Below, piece by piece: positions 22,417 through 33,062 of a stretch of DNA of 33,079 nucleotides. The notes below the pieces were generated by a model. That model was not told where the DNA came from and made no database searches. It saw only the letters and a program-made list of their open reading frames with translations. Position 1 is the stretch's first letter, and the number at the start of each line of letters is the position of its first letter. A program made the translations under genes and the position numbers. The DNA is from Thermodesulfobacteriota bacterium (GTDB lineage Bacteria; Desulfobacterota; GWC2-55-46; JAUVFY01), in the NCBI GenBank assembly GCA_036482575.1, contig JAZGJJ010000114.1, positions 1-33,079 of the forward strand. The letters run 5' to 3'.

Positions 22417-23364
22417 TCAAGCCGTGCCCACTGGCGCGCCGAGGAGTATCTCCTCTATAAGGGCGGCGTAGCCTATGCCCACGGACCCCGCGGCCATCGG
22501 TAAAAGACTCATCTCGGTCATGCCGGGCACGGTATTGAGTTCGAGTACGTAAGGCTTTTCGTCCTTGTTCATAACCATATCGACCCTCGCCGCCCCGCTG
22601 CACCCGAGTGCGGTGTAGGCGTCGAGCGCCACGGCCTTCACCCTGCCCTCGACCTTCTTGTCGAGCTTCGCGGGTACGACGAACTCGGTCATACCCTTCG
22701 TATACTTGGCCTGGTAGTTATAGATGCCCTCCTTCGGTATTATCTCCACTATCGGCAGGACCCTTTCGCCGAGGATAGAGACCGTAAGCTCCCTGCCCTC
22801 TATAAAGCTTTCGACCATGGCCGTATCTCCGTATCGGAAGGCCTCCCTAAGGGCCGCGTCGTAGGCGACCGGGTCCTTTACGACACTCACACCGAGCGTC
22901 GAGCCCTCGGAGGGGGGCTTTACTATAACGGGCATGGGCGGTGGCTGCGCCGCCTTACCACCGGCCCTGACCAGACGGAACGGCGGCGTCGGTATGTCGT
23001 GGTAATAAAGGAACTTCTTTGTCGCCACCTTATCCATTGCCACTGCACTCGCCAGCACGCCGGAGCCGGTGTACGGTATGCCCATGACCTCAAGCATGCC
23101 CTGGACCGAGCCGTCCTCGCCCCACCCGCCGTGAAGCGCAATAAAGGCAACCTCCACGCCTTCGGTCTTGAGCCTCCTGGCCACGTCGTTGTCCGCGTCT
23201 ATAAGCATCGCCCTGTAGTCCCTGGACTGAAGTGCTTTCAGCACGGCCCCACCCGTCTTAAGGGATATCTCCCTCTCCCCGGAGGTCCCCCCCATGAGCA
23301 CGCCCGTCTTCTTCATCCTGAAGGCGGCCTTTCTCTCTTCCAGTTCCCCCGGCTCCATCGCCAC
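22417..23364 (-). CDS. ddl: D-alanine--D-alanine ligase
   Basis: KKTGVLMGGTSGEREISL, ALHGGWGEDGSVQG, and ATP-grasp blocks. The start may be ATG 23316 (MKKTGVLMGG) rather than GTG 23364. Confidence 0.93.
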   Translation of the reverse strand: MAMEPGELEERKAAFRMKKTGVLMGGTSGEREISLKTGGAVLKALQSRDYRAMLIDADNDVARRLKTEGVEVAFIALHGGWGEDGSVQGMLEVMGIPYTGSGVLASAVAMDKVATKKFLYYHDIPTPPFRLVRAGGKAAQPPPMPVIVKPPSEGSTLGVSVVKDPVAYDAALREAFRYGDTAMVESFIEGRELTVSILGERVLPIVEIIPKEGIYNYQAKYTKGMTEFVVPAKLDKKVEGRVKAVALDAYTALGCSGAARVDMVMNKDEKPYVLELNTVPGMTEMSLLPMAAGSVGIGYAALIEEILLGAPVGTA

Positions 23365-23368
23365 TTGG

Positions 23369-24277
23369 CTACTCCTCGCCCACGACCTTTATCTCCGGCT
23401 CGAGCACTATGCCCTTCATGCTGTAAACACTATCCCTTACCCGCGCCATGAGGGTCAGGACGTCCCTCGCCTCGGCCCTGCCGCGGTTCACTATATAGTT
23501 GGCGTGCACCTCCGAGATCTGTGCGTCACCGACCCTCTCGCCCTTGAGCCCGACCTCCTCTATGAGCTTTCCGGCCGCCTCTCCGGCGGGGTTCTTGAAT
23601 ACCGAGCCTGCGTTGGGAAACTTTATCGGGCTCGTCAGCTTGCGCCTGCCCCTTACTTCCTTTATCCTCTCCTCTATCTCCCCGACGCCCTTTTTCTTAA
23701 AGCTCATGTGCGCCCTTGTTATGACCGACCCCTTGGGCAAAGCGGTCTTCCTGTAGTCGAAGCCTATGTCGGCCTTTGAGATAAACCCCTTTTTGCCCTT
23801 CCGGCCGAGCACCTCCACACCATCGACCACGTCCTGCATCTCGCCCCCGTAGGCCCCGGCGTTCATGGTCACGGCCCCCCCGACCGTACCTGGTATTCCG
23901 GCGGCGAACTCGATCCCCGAGAGCCCCCTTTCCCTGCACTGCTCGACGAGCCTCGCAAGCCCCACGCCCGCGCCGCACTCGGCCCAGGTATCCCCCTTCC
24001 AGGACACGTCCTTGAAACCCTCGCTCATGTTCACCACTACGCCCCTTATCCCGCCGTCCCTTACGAGTATGTCGGTCCCCGAGCCGAAGACATGGACCGG
24101 GAACTTCTTCGAGTCCGCGAAGGACAGCAGGTCCTTCAGGTCGGCCTCGTTCTTGGGAAAGGCCATGACGTCGGCGGGCCCGCCTATGCCTATGGACGTG
24201 TACTCGCGCATGGGCACGTTGAAGAGGACCTTGCCCTTGAAGCGCTGGATGAACATGAGTTGGAACTGCGTGCCCAT
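23369..24277 (-). CDS. murB: UDP-N-acetylenolpyruvoylglucosamine reductase
   Basis: YTSIGIGGPADV, GSGTDILV, GAGVGL, NAGSVFKNP. Its start overlaps the murC stop. Confidence 0.95.
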   Translation of the reverse strand: MGTQFQLMFIQRFKGKVLFNVPMREYTSIGIGGPADVMAFPKNEADLKDLLSFADSKKFPVHVFGSGTDILVRDGGIRGVVVNMSEGFKDVSWKGDTWAECGAGVGLARLVEQCRERGLSGIEFAAGIPGTVGGAVTMNAGAYGGEMQDVVDGVEVLGRKGKKGFISKADIGFDYRKTALPKGSVITRAHMSFKKKGVGEIEERIKEVRGRRKLTSPIKFPNAGSVFKNPAGEAAGKLIEEVGLKGERVGDAQISEVHANYIVNRGRAEARDVLTLMARVRDSVYSMKGIVLEPEIKVVGEE

Positions 24278-25671
24278 CAGGCCGTCTCCTTCCTGCGCTT
24301 TTCCTTCAAGAGGTCGAGCAGCCCCTCACCGGCCTTCCAGACGTCCCCGGCGCCGAGCGTTATGACCATGTCGCCCGCCCTTACACTGTCGACGAGGCGG
24401 GCCGGCACCTCGCTCAAATCCTTTACGAAAGATACGTCCTTGTGCCCGTGCTCCTTTACGGCACGGTAGAGTTTTTCGGCCGAAGCGCCGCCAGAGTGCT
24501 TCTCCCCGGCCGAGTAGGTCTCGGTAAGCACGAGCTTCTCCGCGTCGTTAAAGGCGGGGATGAACTCGGTGAAGAGGTCTCTGGTCCTCGAGTGCCTGTG
24601 CGGCTGAAACACCACGACGAGCCTCCTCTTCCAGCCCGCCCTGGCGGCCTTAAGGACCGCCTTTATCTCGACCGGGTGGTGCCCGTAGTCGTCCACCACC
24701 ATGACGTCCCTCTCAATCCCCTTTATCTGGAACCTTCTCTCCACACCGGCGAAGCCCTCGAGCCCGGCCCTTATCTCGTCGAACCCTATATCGAGCTCCC
24801 TTGCCACGGCCACGGCCGCCAGCGCGTTCTGGACGTTGTGCTCGCCCGGTATCCCCATCACGACCGACCCCAGACGCCTCGCCTCGGCCCGGACCTCGAA
24901 AGATATCTTCCCGCCCTTCTGCTCCACCCCGACGGCATGCACGTCCGCCTGGGTGGAAAGACCGTAGGATATGAACCTGCGGCCCACCGAAGGCAAAAGC
25001 TCCTGTATGGCCGGGTGGTCGAGGCAGAGGACCGCGCAGCCGTAGAACGGCACCTTGTTTATGAACTCCAGGTAGGACGCCTTGATCTCGCTCATGTCGT
25101 TGTAATAGTCCATGTGCTCGCGGTCTATGCTCGTCACCACCGCTATGGTGGGTGCAAGTTTCAAGAAAGTCCCGTCGCTCTCGTCGGCCTCGGCCACGAG
25201 GAACTCGCCGCTCCCGAGCCTCGCGCTCGTGCCTATGGAGTTGAGCTTCCCTCCGACGACCATTGTGGGGTCCATCCCGGAGTGCGCCATTATCGCGGCT
25301 ATCATCGAGGTGGTGGTGGTCTTGCCGTGCGTACCGGCTACGGCTATGCCGTGCTTCATCTTCATAAGCTCGGCGAGCATTTCGGCCCTGGGGATTATGG
25401 GTATCTGCCTCTGCGCGGCCTCTTTAAGCTCCGGGTTGTCGGGCCCGACCGCCGAGGAGTAGACCACACAGTCCGCGCCCTCCACGTTCTCCTTCTTGTG
25501 CCCACGGTGTATTACGGCCCCGAGAGCTTCGAGCCTCTTTGTCGTCTCCGAGGACGCGAGGTCCGAGCCCGAGACCCGGTAGTCGAGAGTCAGGAGCACC
25601 TCGGCTATGCCGTTCATGCCGCTGCCCCCTATGCCGACGAAGTGCACCTTTTTTATCCTGCCCCTGTACAT
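24277..25671 (-). CDS. murC: UDP-N-acetylmuramate--L-alanine ligase
   Basis: [39 protein letters not shown]. Confidence 0.95.
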
Positions 25672-29270: not shown

Positions 29271-30344
29271 CTACCTTATCTTGAGCGTACTTATAGCTAC
29301 GAGCGACAGTATTATCGCTATTATCCAGAACCTTACTATTATCCTCGGCTCGGGCCACCCCTTGAGTTCGAAGTGGTGGTGTATGGGCGCCATGGCAAGC
29401 ACCCTCTTGCCCCTCAGCTTGAAGGAGCCTACCTGGAATATGACCGAGAGCGCCTCCACGACGAATATCCCGCCGACGATTATAAGCAGTATTTCGTGCT
29501 TGCTGGCCACGGCCAGGGCCCCGAGCGCCCCTCCGAGCGAAAGGGCCCCTATATCCCCCATGAAGACCTGCGCGGGATAGGTGTTGAACCAGAGGAAGCC
29601 CAGGCTCGCCCCCACCATGGAGCCGGCCAGCACCGCGAGCTCACCGGACCCGGAGACGTGCATTATCTGTAAGTATTCGGCTATCTTAATGTGACCCGTA
29701 ATGTAGGTCAGGAACAGATAGGTACCTGCCGCTATGGTAACGGGCCCTATGGCCAGGCCGTCGAGCCCGTCGGTAAGGTTCACGGCGTTCGACGCCCCGG
29801 CAATGACCAGCGCCACAAAGGGTATGTACAGGATCCCGAGCTCTATGTGCACCCCTTTGAAGAACGGCACGGCTATGCCTGTATCGAACCCGGACATATA
29901 AAGGAAGAGCCCCGCGAGCAGGGCAACGACCATCTGGGAGGTGAACTTCAGAAGGGGCCTGAGCCCCTTCGGCTCCCCCTTTACCACTTTCTTATAGTCG
30001 TCCACGAAGCCTATCCCGCCCATGCCGACGATTACGAAGAGGAGGAACCAGATTAACGGGTTGGTGAGGTTCGCCCACAAGAGCACCGGCACGATTACCG
30101 CGACAAGGATCATGACACCCCCCATCGTGGGGGTCCCCGCCTTGCCCGCGTGGGTGGGCGGGCCGTCCCCCCTTATCACCTCGCCGACCTGCATGGCCGT
30201 AAGCCTCTTTATAAAGTACGGTCCGATAATGAAACTAAGCACAAGGGCCGTCACGGTCGCGTAGATAGTCCGAAACGTTATGTACTGAAATACGTTGAAG
30301 ATCGCGTGGTACTTGGCCAGTGGGTACAAAAAATGATAGAGCAC
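29271..30344 (-). CDS. mraY: Phospho-N-acetylmuramoyl-pentapeptide transferase
   Basis: (V)[24 protein letters not shown] is the canonical MraY N-terminus. GTG 30344 is preceded by TAAGGAGAGGGG. Also contains [13 protein letters not shown]. Confidence 0.95.
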
Positions 30345-30348
30345 TTTT

Positions 30349-30361
30349 CCCCTCTCCTTAT
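30349..30361. repeat. 13-bp direct repeat, copy 1 (CCCCTCTCCTTAT), at the mraY-proximal edge of the insertion
   Basis: Identical to 31602-31614. It contains the mraY SD and the TAA stop of the 260-aa ORF. Confidence 0.9.
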
Positions 30362-31140
30362 CCCGTCCCTGCGGGAGGATAAAACACACCCAATATCATG
30401 AACTTATCCCTGAACCTTTGCCAATTCCCCACGAAAAAATAGATGTCGTTCTTCTCTGCGCATATTCTATCGAGCCACGTTTCTTTTATTTTCTCCAACA
30501 AAGTGTTTTCATCCTTATATCTCCCTCGCCACTGCCTATACGCTTGACCTATTTCCCAATCGATTATAGGCAAAGTATGGCCTGCACATCCGGGTTCACC
30601 CTGGCAATAAAAAGAATACCTAAAGTCATACGGTATGGGTTCTATTGCCTCCATTCTTTTGTTGTAGAAGCTAAGTTGCGCATAGCAACTCTTCCTCTCT
30701 TGTTGATCTTTTTTCCTGGCCACCTTCCAGTGAAAACCTATATTATGAGGCCTAAACATGCCCAAAGATTTGTCCTTGCTTTTACTCTCCCCATAAACTT
30801 CACACAACGAGGCAGAGACGGTAGGCAAAAGCACCTTCTTTCTCTTCTCCCACCCATTGCTTGTATCGTACACATCGACCACGTTTATCTTGTTGCTAAT
30901 GTCGACCTTAAAACTCTCCGGCCGCGCATCGTCTTTTGCCTTTGAGACTTTTACCTCGATCACACTATACTTCTTGAACCTTTCAGCACTATCCAAGTCT
31001 CTAAAAGGTATGGGGTAAAGTCTTCTCCATTCCCCGCTATCAATATCTACACCGGCAACGCAAACGGTTTCCCCGTACTTCTTGCTCGGATTCGGGTAAG
31101 CCTTAACAGCCACAAGAACTCGTTTGGTTTCCCAAAGCAA
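30358..31140 (-). CDS. Hypothetical 260-aa protein, partner of DUF488; no family recognised
   Basis: Long low-GC ORF co-oriented with DUF488 and 9 nt downstream of it. TTG start after GGGGGAG. Features: [52 protein letters not shown]. Confidence 0.75.
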
Positions 31141-31601
31141 TGACTCCCCCTATAAATGTTTTATTATAAGCCCATTGCCGTCCACTTCCTTAATCTTCTC
31201 GGCCACTATCTTCCTATGGCAATCAGAAGGTTCTTTCTCCATACACATAAAACAGCTAACCCCATGAACTATAGTATTAAGATACAAGTCCCTGACAACG
31301 CTCATCTGTGTCTTCAGATGCTTCCGATACTCTTTGAAAAAATAGTCGTAGTCGTTGTCTTGATAGAGTTTCTGCCGCAATTCCTTTGGGCTTCCTAATT
31401 CTTTCGTGTGCACATACATTATATTGAACCGACCGAGATACTCCTTGAGTTTATTTTTTGAAAACCCGGGTTTTCGGCTGGCCGGAACCTCTCTAACATC
31501 AATAAGAACGTTAACCCCAAATTGTTGGAGTCTTTCAACGAAGTCCTCAATTTTCCTCTTTTCGTATCCTATGGTAAATACCGATATCGGCTCCATGTTA
31601 G
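30362..31601 (-). other. Low-GC two-gene insertion inside the dcw operon (no mobility gene)
   Basis: Bounded by the 13-bp direct repeat. Hand count gives 24/60 G+C for 31141-31200, against 36/60 for 31681-31740 in murF. Confidence 0.75.
31150..31596 (-). CDS. DUF488 family protein
   Basis: VFTIGYEKRKIEDFVERLQQFGVNVLIDVREVPASRKPGFSKNKL, YVHTKELGSP, and CFMCMEKEPSDCHRKIVAEKI are typical DUF488 blocks. Confidence 0.88.
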   Translation of the reverse strand: MEPISVFTIGYEKRKIEDFVERLQQFGVNVLIDVREVPASRKPGFSKNKLKEYLGRFNIMYVHTKELGSPKELRQKLYQDNDYDYFFKEYRKHLKTQMSVVRDLYLNTIVHGVSCFMCMEKEPSDCHRKIVAEKIKEVDGNGLIIKHL

Positions 31602-31614
31602 CCCCTCTCCTTAT
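31602..31614. repeat. 13-bp direct repeat, copy 2 (CCCCTCTCCTTAT), at the murF-proximal edge of the insertion
   Basis: Contains the murF TAA stop and serves as the SD for the DUF488 gene (TAAGGAGAGGGG-CTAAC-ATG). Confidence 0.9.
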
Positions 31615-33062
31615 AAACCGTTTGAACGTGCCGCTTTCCCCAACCGTTCCTCCTTCAAGCCCTCCACCAGCTCTTCCATCCTGACGGCCCTTGAACCCTT
31701 AATGAGGACCGTATCCCCTTTTCCGAGCGAGGAGCGGAGCATCTCTAGCGCCCCCCGGTTGTCATCGAAGCAATGTATGTTTTCTTTCTCCATGCCCCCG
31801 TCCCTCGCCCCCTCGCTTATCGCCGCCGCCCACTCCCCGACGCATAAGAGCACGTCCAGTCCGAGTTCCGCCGAGAGCTGCCCGATCTCGTGGTGCGCCT
31901 CCGAGGAGACCTTCCCGAGTTCCAGCATATCCCCGAGGACCGCCACCTTCAGGCCCGTCCCCACGCTCGAAAGGGTCTTGAGTGCCGCGGTTACGGACTC
32001 GGGGTTGGCGTTGTAGGTATCGTCGAATACAGTGAGCCCGTCGAGATCCAGGACCTCCATCCTGCCGGGCATGGGGAGGTAAGAGGTAAGCCCCTCCCGT
32101 ATCTCATCCACCCTCACCCCGAGCGAGAGGGCGGCCGCGGCCGCGGCCGCCCCGTTATAGACGTTGCACGACCACGGGGAGTTGAGCCTGACCTCGACAT
32201 CTTCGCCGCGTATCTCATATACCGTATCGATTGTATTGGCCACGTTGGCGCCGTTGCGTGAAAAGCACTTTATCCTGACCTCCGCAAAGCCGGCGAGGCC
32301 GAAGGTAATCATCCTGTCGCCCTTAAGTCCGGCACGGTCGGCGATCTTCATCACCCTCGGGTCGTCCGCGTTAACGACCCCCGTCCCCCTGGGGCCGAGC
32401 GAGCGGAAGAGATATCCCTTCTCCTCGGCCACGCCGTCGAGCGAGCCGAGCCCTTCGAGGTGCCCCCTGCCGACATTCGTAACGACCGCCACGTCCGCGC
32501 CGCATATCTCCGCGAGCCTTTCCATCTCGCCCGGCTCGCTTATGCCGAGCTCAACCACCACGACCTCCTGGACGTCGCTCAGGCCGAAAAGCGTCAGCGG
32601 CAAGCCCACGAGGTTATTCATGTTCCCCTCGGTCTTGAGTACGCTCTTCGTCGTCGAGAGTATGGAGGCCAGCATCTCCTTGACGGTGGTCTTGCCGGTG
32701 CTCCCGCTTATCGCCACGACCGGTACGGGACGGCTCCTCCTTACAAAGCCCGCGAGGTCCCCGAGTGCGGTCAGGGTATCCTTGACCGCTATGAGGTTAA
32801 AGGAAGTCGGCAGGTCCTTGACCAACACGTCCCGCATCCCCTCCTCGACCACCGCGGCCGCGACCGCGCCCGAGGCCCCCCTTTTGGCCGCCTCCCCCAC
32901 GAAGCCGTGCCCGTCGAAGTTGGGCCCCTTAAGGGCGAAGAAGAGCTCCCCCCGCCTGACGGTCCTCGTATCGGTGGACACACCCTCGGCCTGGCCGGTG
33001 CCGGCGCCGGCCAGGAGCTTCCCGCCCGTGGCCTCGATGATATCCCTTATAAGCAGCTTCAT
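31611..33062 (-). CDS. murF: UDP-N-acetylmuramoyl-tripeptide--D-alanyl-D-alanine ligase
   Basis: STDTRTVRRGELFFALKGPNFDGHGF, ISGSTGKTT, DDTYNANP. Confidence 0.95.
   Translation of the reverse strand: MKLLIRDIIEATGGKLLAGAGTGQAEGVSTDTRTVRRGELFFALKGPNFDGHGFVGEAAKRGASGAVAAAVVEEGMRDVLVKDLPTSFNLIAVKDTLTALGDLAGFVRRSRPVPVVAISGSTGKTTVKEMLASILSTTKSVLKTEGNMNNLVGLPLTLFGLSDVQEVVVVELGISEPGEMERLAEICGADVAVVTNVGRGHLEGLGSLDGVAEEKGYLFRSLGPRGTGVVNADDPRVMKIADRAGLKGDRMITFGLAGFAEVRIKCFSRNGANVANTIDTVYEIRGEDVEVRLNSPWSCNVYNGAAAAAAALSLGVRVDEIREGLTSYLPMPGRMEVLDLDGLTVFDDTYNANPESVTAALKTLSSVGTGLKVAVLGDMLELGKVSSEAHHEIGQLSAELGLDVLLCVGEWAAAISEGARDGGMEKENIHCFDDNRGALEMLRSSLGKGDTVLIKGSRAVRMEELVEGLKEERLGKAARSNGL

Follow-up and report, generated by a model that had tools for sequence, protein, structure and literature searches.

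A predicted tandem OB-fold protein paired with DUF488 lies in a copy of the candidate defence module PDC-M19 inserted between murF and mraY

The window, which is the whole 33,079-nt stretch of Thermodesulfobacteriota DNA analysed here, carries a DUF488 gene followed by a 260-aa open reading frame, both located between murF and mraY (Table 1). The 260-aa frame, whose product we call DuOB, is real and intact, and it begins with TTG and ends with TAA. The sequence GGGGGAG lies 3 nt ahead of the TTG. This start is supported because homologue alignments begin at residues 1–4; the database gene call (P0001, 251 aa) is 9 residues shorter. The DUF488 stop codon (31150–31152) is separated from the DuOB start by a 9-nt gap, and the DuOB stop codon (30358–30360) falls within the 13-mer CCCCTCTCCTTAT, which occurs a second time upstream of DUF488. 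An initial annotation made by eye had described a 260-aa frame positioned 9 nt past DUF488 with its stop inside a duplicated 13-mer, and our coordinates agree. All of the peptides it quoted are present in DuOB: an N-terminal block (residues 14–50), IEVKV (61–65), CYAQ (152–155) and a Cys/His cluster (179–188).

Table 1. Positions of genes, signals and protein features at the murF–mraY junction of the window
Feature	Position	Strand	Basis or remark
murF, upstream host gene	31611..33062	-	GC ~63%
13-mer copy 1 (minus strand ATAAGGAGAGGGG)	31602..31614	.	murF stop TAA and ribosome-binding site (RBS) now serving DUF488
DUF488 / PDC-M19A gene, 148 aa	31150..31596	-	Pfam, PADLOC, conservation
DUF488 motif C115-x2-C118-x-E120...C126-H127-R128	31213-31254	-	conserved
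RBS GGGGGAG of DuOB gene	31144..31150	-	overlaps last base of DUF488 stop
DuOB / PDC-M19B gene, 260 aa	30358..31140	-	ORF; PADLOC PDLC04508; phrog_25907; homologues
Predicted OB fold 1 (OB1), residues 4-90	30871..31131	-	AF2 strands; conservation; single-domain model
Cys27 codon	31060..31062	-	invariant, 129/129; retained in relatives without the metal motif
Two predicted inter-domain helices, residues 98-122	30775..30849	-	W97 and R100 just before; C113 opens the second helix
C113 codon, probable metal-site partner of knuckle	30802-30804	-	
Predicted OB fold 2 (OB2), residues 127-253, helical inserts 143-158 and 195-226	30382..30762	-	tandem-OB matches
C179-x5-C185-x2-H188 knuckle, predicted hairpin between two OB2 strands	30577..30606	-	conservation, co-loss
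D194-W195-E196 motif, start of predicted OB2 helix	30553..30561	-	123, 127 and 127 of 129 relatives
13-mer copy 2	30349..30361	.	DuOB stop TAA and mraY RBS (mraY GTG start 30344)
mraY, downstream host gene	29271..30344	-	start GTG 30344 (MLYHFLYP...)

The two-gene cassette interrupts the dcw operon at the precise boundary between murF stop codon and mraY RBS. Because the 13-nt junction is duplicated, DUF488 and mraY each own a copy of the site. A longer mraY frame beginning at 30389 was considered and discarded in favour of the GTG start. Within the window, the pair is AT-rich and has a lower GC content than its flanks. The gap between murF and mraY measures 1,266 nt here, whereas in 72 relatives it ranges from −43 to +567 nt. 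No terminator-like site was found between murF and mraY. None of these 72 relatives carries the pair at the murF–mraY junction and other copies reside in unrelated contexts, and thus a functional tie of the pair to cell-wall synthesis was rejected. Duplication of the target site is not a general rule for the cassette, as flanking direct repeats of at least 12 nt were found at 3 of 70 other loci versus 1 of 243 control windows. A search of the metagenome collection for the empty site did not recover the reconstructed exact murF–mraY junction, and the closest MraY in that collection is only 64% identical. A look for sequencing runs and expression data that cover the locus found none. A candidate defence cassette spliced into this essential junction, with a second RBS copy that would keep the operon expressed, represents an unusual insertion.

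Profile searches place DuOB in a family, although the protein had been annotated as having none that could be recognized. The PADLOC model PDLC04508 (PDC-M19B) matches over the full length of the protein (E = 6.2e-67; residues 5–257 against model positions 3–262 of 269), two further PDC-M19B models match at E = 1e-39 and 2.6e-31, and the phage family phrog_25907 matches at E = 1.5e-60. The Pfam family DuOB (PF22557) shares with our protein the two tandem OB folds, as judged from an AlphaFold2 (AF2) model, and the association with DUF488. However, its model scores the query at 13.7 bits (E = 0.064), which is below the 27-bit gathering threshold, and the hit is limited to residues 23–148. The same Pfam model reaches E < 0.01 for just 13 of 129 diverse relatives, with a best value of 2.6e-6. 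Judged by these results, this branch lies at the margin of the curated Pfam DuOB model or outside it. Precomputed PF22557.3 assignments are present on roughly 30% of close homologues, and many homologues at 58–68% identity are among the carriers. The Pfam families DuOB and DUF488-N3 are said to originate from work by Burroughs and Aravind (2023). A search against NCBIfam profiles gave no match, and neither phmmer with the single sequence nor hmmsearch with a 129-sequence profile produced a meaningful link to PDB chains. The relatives of DuOB run into the thousands, with 681 homologues and 2,069 cluster representatives found.

The neighbouring gene is likewise assigned by profile matches to Pfam PF04343 (E = 2e-31), to PF22751 (DUF488-N3a; 34.7 bits against a cut-off of 27 bits) and to PADLOC PDLC04505 (PDC-M19A; E = 3e-40). 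The PADLOC match covers only model positions 150–293 of 294, and the gene aligns to positions 167–302 of 313 in the PHROG model of the DUF488 partner. Both partner models therefore include extra N-terminal regions relative to the minimal 148-aa form found here. The partnership with DUF488, which the initial annotation had proposed to check by neighbourhood conservation, is borne out. DUF488 adjoins DuOB at all 76 testable genome loci and on all 41 viral contigs (117/117), and the pairwise identities of the two proteins correlate (Mantel r = 0.62, a value reached by 0 of 999 permutations). No conserved third gene was found beside the pair across the loci compared. One exception is the Sulfolobus plasmid pSOG2, which carries a DuOB gene with no detectable DUF488 on the replicon, and thus the partnership is not absolute. 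DNA-end processing has reportedly been predicted for this clade of DUF488 proteins by Burroughs and Aravind (2023).

The DuOB and DUF488 genes together are a new copy of the catalogued candidate module PDC-M19, whose mechanism we infer below. PDC-M19 is one of 145 phage defence candidates described by Payne, Hughes, Fineran & Jackson (10.1101/2024.01.29.577857), where it is listed as cassette CAS_00089 with a count of 174, and the presence of copies inside BREX, DISARM or type I RM loci was the reason for choosing the pair. In the present copy, both genes match the corresponding models, and the gene order (A then B), strand and tight spacing are identical to those of the catalogued module. It differs in that its DUF488 protein is of minimal length and the copy sits in the dcw cell-wall operon rather than in a defence system. 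The catalogue entry as a two-gene defence candidate agrees with the earlier suggestion that the pair resembles a two-component defence system. The candidates tested in PMC12881386 do not include PDC-M19. In the literature searched, we found no paper that uses the name 'PDC-M19' and no experiments on any family member, including tests of defence or toxin activity.

The AF2 model of DuOB (pLDDT 95, pTM 0.91) is composed of two tandem OB folds. Foldseek matched this model with probabilities of 0.96–1.0 to LEF-3 with single-stranded DNA (ssDNA), the HIN domains of p204, p205 and IFI16, RPA70 DBD-AB (TM-scores of 0.46 and 0.49) and Oxytricha TEBP, whereas Teb1 and CST gave lower values (0.72–0.95). 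LEF-3 is also the best match in a library of viral structures, and OB1 modelled alone matches the OB folds of uS12, HIN and Ta0387. Like RPA70 DBD-A/B (1jmc), the HIN-200 proteins (p204, IFI16 and AIM2), LEF-3 and TEBP, the modelled protein has two OB folds and a helical connection. In contrast, there is no detectable sequence similarity to these proteins, and TM-scores against solved tandem-OB proteins reach only modest values (0.3–0.5). Moreover, only DuOB has the Cys/Glu-Cys-Cys-His knuckle in OB2, extended helical inserts and, as invariant residues, one Cys and several acidic positions. The isoelectric point of DuOB is 9.2 (family median 9.0). The tandem OB fold and the basic character of the protein fit a probable role in binding DNA or RNA, and the Lys, Arg, Tyr and Trp residues conserved on the face of OB1 lend this role indirect support.

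Residue conservation was counted over the 129 diverse relatives. Three residues, C27, R73 and P16, are invariant (129/129), and the most conserved pocket of the family lies in OB1 (K13, Y15, P16, S19, E24, C27, R40, R47, K57, D71, R73, E75 and S76). This agrees with the earlier impression that the N-terminal block looked conserved, as no other part of the protein is better conserved in the family. There are also five near-invariant acidic residues, all of them retained even in relatives that have lost the metal motif described below. Such a set of acidic residues together with an invariant Cys is unusual and counts against a passive OB-fold binder.

Conservation and structure prediction both speak against the nuclease that had been proposed from an RDLD...IEVKV segment with the spacing of a PD-(D/E)xK core. 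This segment is present in this one sequence, which is what the idea of a nuclease effector with its catalytic residues there has in its favour. The putative catalytic positions are poorly conserved, with D48 found in 35, D50 in 29, E62 in 69 and K64 in 12 of the 129 relatives, and the pattern D-x(8-30)-[DE]xK appears in 94% of shuffles of the DuOB sequence. Residues 47–65 fall in β-strands of OB1 in the AF2 model, and the predicted all-β OB fold contrasts with the α/β core (αβββαβ) of restriction-endonuclease-like enzymes. No nuclease or other enzyme appears among the top 50 PDB fold matches, either for the whole model or for OB1 alone. Thus, a PD-(D/E)xK nuclease is ruled out as a reading of this motif, and we regard a nuclease effector of this kind as extremely improbable.

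The proposed Cys/His metal cluster fared better, at least in part. Residues C179, C185 and H188 are conserved in 115, 109 and 120 of the 129 relatives, respectively, and are jointly present in 109. Cys or Glu occupies position 113 in 107 of these 109 relatives but in only 1 of 15 that have lost the motif (Fisher p = 2e-12). The four positions thus persist or disappear as a set, which suggests that C/E113, C179, C185 and H188 form a structural metal (zinc) site that the family can do without and that probably braces OB2. The CYAQ portion of the cluster did not hold up, as C152 is not conserved and was rejected as a metal ligand. C27 is an unlikely fourth zinc ligand, since all 15 relatives that lack the C179/C185/H188 motif still have it, and it is position 113 that disappears along with the motif.

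The pair is widespread and its distribution patchy: 2,069 cluster representatives and at least 335 species genomes were found, along with copies in phages and on plasmids. The GC content of the cassette is below that of its flanks in 29 of 30 loci. Some copies adjoin integrases and AIPR genes. DuOB is carried by conjugative plasmids, including the Sulfolobus pSOG plasmids, where it lies beside an integrase. The pair is only weakly associated with defence islands: of the 120 genes that flank it in 30 loci, no more than a handful match defence models, and most are housekeeping genes. In temperate (CZ1) phages of Gordonia, the DuOB gene comes immediately after the immunity-repressor gene, with which it overlaps and is co-transcribed, and DUF488 is convergent. 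This is the same repressor-linked position that is occupied by lambda rexAB and by genes 43/44 of Gordonia phage CarolAnn, which are a tested defence pair beside the repressor (PMC6426606). The proteins themselves are unrelated, because RexAB-like systems consist of a membrane channel and a DUF4747 protein; CarolAnn 43/44 were accordingly rejected as DuOB/DUF488 homologues and are RexAB-like.

Taken as a whole, we consider it reasonably probable that DuOB is a metal-braced tandem-OB partner subunit of DUF488, encoded by the mobile cassette PDC-M19 and having a role in conflict among hosts, phages and mobile elements. In this model, the two genes would form an autonomous, AT-rich, horizontally mobile cassette. 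DUF488 would be an enzyme of the rhodanese-phosphatase superfamily that retains its C-x2-C-x-E...C-H-R motif, and DuOB, with two OB folds linked by two helices and a Cys/Glu113-Cys179-Cys185-His188 site probably bracing OB2, would be its partner subunit. The canonical face of OB1, which combines basic and aromatic residues kept across the family with the invariant Cys27 and Arg73 and the likewise conserved Asp71 and Glu75, may bind single-stranded nucleic acid or a DNA or RNA end. DuOB could then present the bound substrate to DUF488 or gate its activity, and DUF488 would chemically process a terminal phosphate- or sugar-linked group. Conflict among hosts, phages and mobile elements would be the most likely biological setting for this activity.

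Other arrangements of the same two proteins can be envisaged. DuOB might itself be an enzyme or toxin for which DUF488 serves as antidote or reversing enzyme, as in a toxin–antitoxin or DarT/DarG-like module. The invariance of Cys27, Arg73 and Pro16 and the five acidic residues that persist without the metal motif are what such an arrangement would explain, and the two small genes are closely coupled and co-evolve. The extra N-terminal regions of the PADLOC and PHROG DUF488 partner models and one cassette copy with two in-frame stop codons (locus L046) also count in its favour. An obligately neutralized toxin, however, should not occur alone as DuOB does on pSOG2, and the layout in Gordonia phages, in which DuOB travels with the repressor, would be unexpected if neutralization were tight. 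Furthermore, the absence of enzymes from the top fold matches, the placement of the DUF488 gene first and the basic charge and ordinary size of both proteins weigh against a toxin, which we judge unlikely. In this reading, the active site would be the OB1 pocket (Cys27, Arg73, Asp71, Glu75, Arg40 and Arg47), with DuOB modifying or covalently capturing nucleic acid and DUF488 undoing the result. A related conjecture, also improbable in our estimation, is that DuOB, rather than binding passively, is an OB-fold sensor or enzyme of a novel kind in which Cys27, set in an Arg/Asp/Glu pocket, recognizes or covalently engages a specific nucleic-acid end or lesion, a state that DUF488 then processes or reverses.

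Alternatively, the pair might not serve immunity but act as an accessory for DNA-end processing or ssDNA handling, assisting the repair, conjugative transfer or replication of its carrier elements and genomes. Most cassettes do stand alone amid housekeeping genes with few defence neighbours, and carriage by phages and by conjugative plasmids such as pSOG, beside an integrase, would suit such a function. The closest structural counterparts of DuOB are ssDNA-binding proteins of replication and telomeres, and the DNA-end processing activity that Burroughs and Aravind (2023) are said to have predicted for this DUF488 clade points the same way. A patchy distribution, low GC content and the lack of the cassette at the murF–mraY junction of 72 relatives fit poorly with this function, as do the copies within BREX, DISARM or type I RM loci, those beside AIPR genes and integrases, and the location of temperate-phage DuOB in an immunity region expressed during lysogeny. 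We therefore see only a small chance that the pair is a non-immune accessory of this type.

Among bacterial and archaeal families that lack an assigned function, DUF488 is one of the larger, and it has no more faithful partner than DuOB. What is new here is a residue map that separates a dispensable, probable metal brace (C/E113, C179, C185 and H188) from the OB1 pocket (C27, R73, R40, R47, D71 and E75) and the D194-W195-E196 motif, together with the clear dismissal of the nuclease proposal and the unusual insertion into the murF–mraY junction. Were the pair shown to provide immunity, DUF488 would gain a function, possibly with new effector chemistry. Should Cys27 act as the core of a sensor or enzyme, PDC-M19 would, as an immune or addiction system, bring a previously unseen chemistry to prokaryotic defence. 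In this bacterium, the module would then be part of the essential dcw operon and thus expressed constitutively.

The 260-residue protein encoded at 30358–31140, here called DuOB, was initially annotated as having no recognizable family, yet it is matched over its full length by the PADLOC profile PDC-M19B (E 6.2e-67); the PHROGs family phrog_25907, annotated as function unknown, also matches (E 1.5e-60). The neighbouring DUF488 gene is matched by PDC-M19A (E 3e-40), the other half of this two-gene phage defence candidate, and the suggested likeness to a two-component defence or toxin-like pair fits an existing catalogue entry. PDC-M19 is among the 145 'guilt-by-embedding' candidates of Payne et al. 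(10.1101/2024.01.29.577857), where the supplementary table of the preprint lists it as cassette CAS_00089 and gives its count as 174. It is absent from the candidates tested in PMC12881386, and a literature search for 'PDC-M19' found no mention.

Pfam PF22557 DuOB ('dual OB-containing domain') falls below threshold for the query (13.7 bits versus a 27-bit cut-off), and only 13 of 129 diverse relatives match it at E<0.01; precomputed PF22557.3 assignments are present on roughly 30% of close homologues. Searches of NCBIfam and of PDB sequences with the DuOB protein found nothing. Judged by sequence searches, the family is large, with 681 matches in a word-indexed search and, at E<=1e-3, 2069 matches that each represent a cluster at 50% identity; a pattern-limited scan of GTDB species genomes gave 335 loci.

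The open reading frame coordinates confirm that DuOB begins 9 nt past the DUF488 stop codon and that its own stop lies within a duplicated 13-mer, and every peptide quoted in the initial annotation is found in the protein. The TTG start, which follows GGGGGAG after a 3-nt spacer, is preferable to that of the public gene call (P0001; 251 residues, GTG start at V10), because homologue alignments begin at residues 1–4 (consensus MxxETKxVLVTVKAYP) and the first modelled beta-strand spans residues 4–14. The public start costs nine residues, including much of this conserved strand.

Coordinates of the two genes, their junctions and the modelled domains of the DuOB protein
Feature	Position	Strand	Details
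DuOB gene, 260 aa	30358–31140	−	ORF listing; start TTG 31140, stop TAA 30358–30360
DUF488 gene, 148 aa	31150–31596	−	TAG stop, 9 nt before DuOB start
murF end junction		−	...TTTA-TAA-GGAGAGGGG-CTAAC-ATG(DUF488)
DuOB end junction		−	...GGA-TAA-GGAGAGGGG-AAAA-GTG(mraY; MLYHFLYP)
OB1	residues 4–90		AlphaFold2 model
Two connecting helices	residues 98–122		AlphaFold2 model
OB2	residues 127–253		AlphaFold2 model; helical inserts 143–158 and 195–226

An AlphaFold2 model built from the 129 aligned relatives, most of them 30–50% identical to the query, has a pLDDT of 95 and a pTM of 0.91, and its predicted fold is a tandem OB. Tandem-OB nucleic-acid binders lead the Foldseek comparison with the PDB at probabilities of 0.96–1.0, including baculovirus LEF-3 bound to single-stranded DNA, the HIN-200 domains of p204, p205 and IFI16, RPA70 DBD-A/B (1jmc; TM 0.46/0.49) and Oxytricha TEBP; Teb1 and CST match more weakly (0.72–0.95). 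LEF-3 is again the best match in a viral structure library. When modelled separately (pLDDT 88), OB1 matches the OB folds of ribosomal uS12, HIN and Ta0387. The protein is basic, with a pI of 9.2 (family median 9.0; above 8 in 107 of 129 relatives).

The PD-(D/E)xK nuclease core initially proposed for this protein is refuted. Its residues vary among the 129 relatives (D48 in 35, D50 in 29, E62 in 69 and K64 in 12), the D-x(8-30)-[DE]xK pattern recurs in 94% of shuffles of the query sequence and the segment falls within OB1 strands of the model. Neither PDB fold search, with the full model or with OB1 alone, places a nuclease among its 50 best matches.

Conservation instead marks other positions. 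P16, C27 and R73 are present in all 129 relatives, and K13, Y15, S19, E24, R40, P43, R47, D71, E75, W97, R100, H188, D194, W195 and E196 are each retained in at least 90%. The N-terminal block singled out earlier is indeed conserved, holding invariant P16 and C27, and forms the family core. By their secondary-structure positions in the model, most checked functional residues would map to L12, beta2, beta3 and L45 of OB1, which constitute the canonical OB ligand face.

The suggested Cys/His metal cluster survives in part: C152 of the CYAQ motif is not conserved, whereas C179, C185 and H188, located in a hairpin joining two OB2 strands, are kept in 115, 109 and 120 of the 129 relatives, respectively. 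Residue 113 tracks them. It is a Cys in 70 relatives and a Glu in another 43, and one of these two amino acids occupies it in 107 of the 109 relatives that carry the complete trio versus 1 of 15 missing at least two of the three (Fisher p 2e-12). We read C/E113-C179-C185-H188 as a putative structural metal site with which about 12% of the family dispenses. Where the motif is lost, the checked functional residues (E24, C27, R40, D71, R73, E75, D194 and E196) are retained.

DuOB and DUF488 are strictly associated and co-evolve, and the DUF488 partner keeps its signature residues. The DUF488 gene lies directly upstream on the same strand in 76 of 80 genome loci retrieved (gaps of 3–61 nt), the other four being cut by a contig end, and in IMG/VR all 41 contigs carrying a relative of DuOB have it as a neighbour (39 upstream, 2 convergent); the proposed association holds in every uncut locus of both samples. 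The pairwise identities of DuOB proteins and those of their DUF488 partners are correlated (Mantel r 0.62; reached by 0 of 999 permutations). The DUF488 partners retain C115, C118, E120, C126, H127 and R128, and that of the window scores above the cut-off of the Pfam 'active DUF488-N3' model (34.7 versus 27 bits). One exception is the Sulfolobus conjugative plasmid pSOG2, which carries a DuOB gene (PDC-M19B E 5e-40) and no detectable DUF488 across its whole 26-kb replicon.

No third conserved gene accompanies the pair in 30 loci, whose flanks are heterogeneous and mostly housekeeping, with few defence matches (one type I S subunit, mad5, PDC-S41, AbiU, two AIPR genes and one Schlafen-like helicase). 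The cassette is autonomous and mobile. Its GC content lies below that of the surrounding DNA in 29 of 30 loci, the median difference being −9 points, and is 42–45% versus about 60–65% in the window. Some copies adjoin integrases and AIPR genes, and the cassette is present in 24 plasmid records and in seven records of Gordonia CZ1 temperate phages, which represent five distinct phages. In phage Nymphadora (NC_031061.1, 4030–6277), DuOB is gene 43; it overlaps the stop codon of gene 44, which encodes the immunity repressor, and converges with gene 42. The latter, mis-annotated as 'HipA toxin', is a DUF488 (Pfam E 1e-29). Genes co-expressed with the repressor of Gordonia phage CarolAnn are a proven, RexAB-like defence pair (PMC6426606), but that pair is unrelated to DuOB–DUF488, and the comparison is an analogy rather than functional evidence.

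Several other loci bear marks of their own. On pSOG2 (22937–24297), the DuOB gene adjoins the plasmid integrase, and an overlapping 168-aa ORF downstream has no family match. In a Syntrophaceae metagenome-assembled genome, the cassette is flanked at 760–880 and 2150–2270 of locus L033 by an imperfect direct repeat about 45 nt long, of which 18 nt match exactly; both copies encode QIDKLV(C/Y)ELYDLTxEEIxIVE, a typical C-terminal tail of type I/IIG restriction-modification methyltransferase subunits, and neither lies within an ORF of at least 90 aa. At locus L036, one copy of the 14-nt repeat GTATTAGGAGTTTT (610–623 and 1838–1851) falls within the 3′ end of DuOB, where it encodes MVLGVFYPP, and the other immediately precedes the ribosome-binding site of DUF488; the repeat may have been left by a tandem or circular junction of the cassette. 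The DuOB copy of Phycisphaerales UBA2218 (L046, 6001–6780) is interrupted by two in-frame stop codons, one of them in place of conserved W38, and is probably a pseudogene.

In the window, the cassette separates murF from mraY by 1266 nt, versus −43 to +567 nt in 72 related loci, none of which carries the pair at this position. The 13-mer CCCCTCTCCTTAT occurs at 30349–30361 and 31602–31614, and the junction sequences identify it as a stop codon plus ribosome-binding site (minus strand ATAAGGAGAGGGG). The copy at 31602–31614 ends murF and serves DUF488; that at 30349–30361 ends DuOB and serves mraY, and the insertion therefore preserves translation of this essential gene. The longest mraY ORF (GTG 30389) overlaps the DuOB 3′ end; the true start is GTG 30344, because conserved MLYHFLYP begins there, 4 nt past the ribosome-binding site. 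No terminator-like site was found in 30200–31800, so the pair is probably transcribed by read-through with the dcw operon.

We propose that DuOB would work with DUF488 and bind either single-stranded nucleic acid or a nucleic-acid end. DUF488 was reportedly placed in the rhodanese-phosphatase superfamily by Burroughs and Aravind in 2023, who are said to have predicted DNA-end processing in conflict systems for it. Alternatively, DuOB might itself have catalytic or toxic activity, DUF488 being its antidote, a reading favoured by the invariant Cys and an acidic pocket and opposed by the solitary DuOB of pSOG2; or the pair might serve non-immune DNA handling for mobile elements. The protein at 30358–31140 adds one member to a known, uncharacterized kind of pair, for which these readings diverge in their predicted toxicity, binding and phage-assay outcomes.
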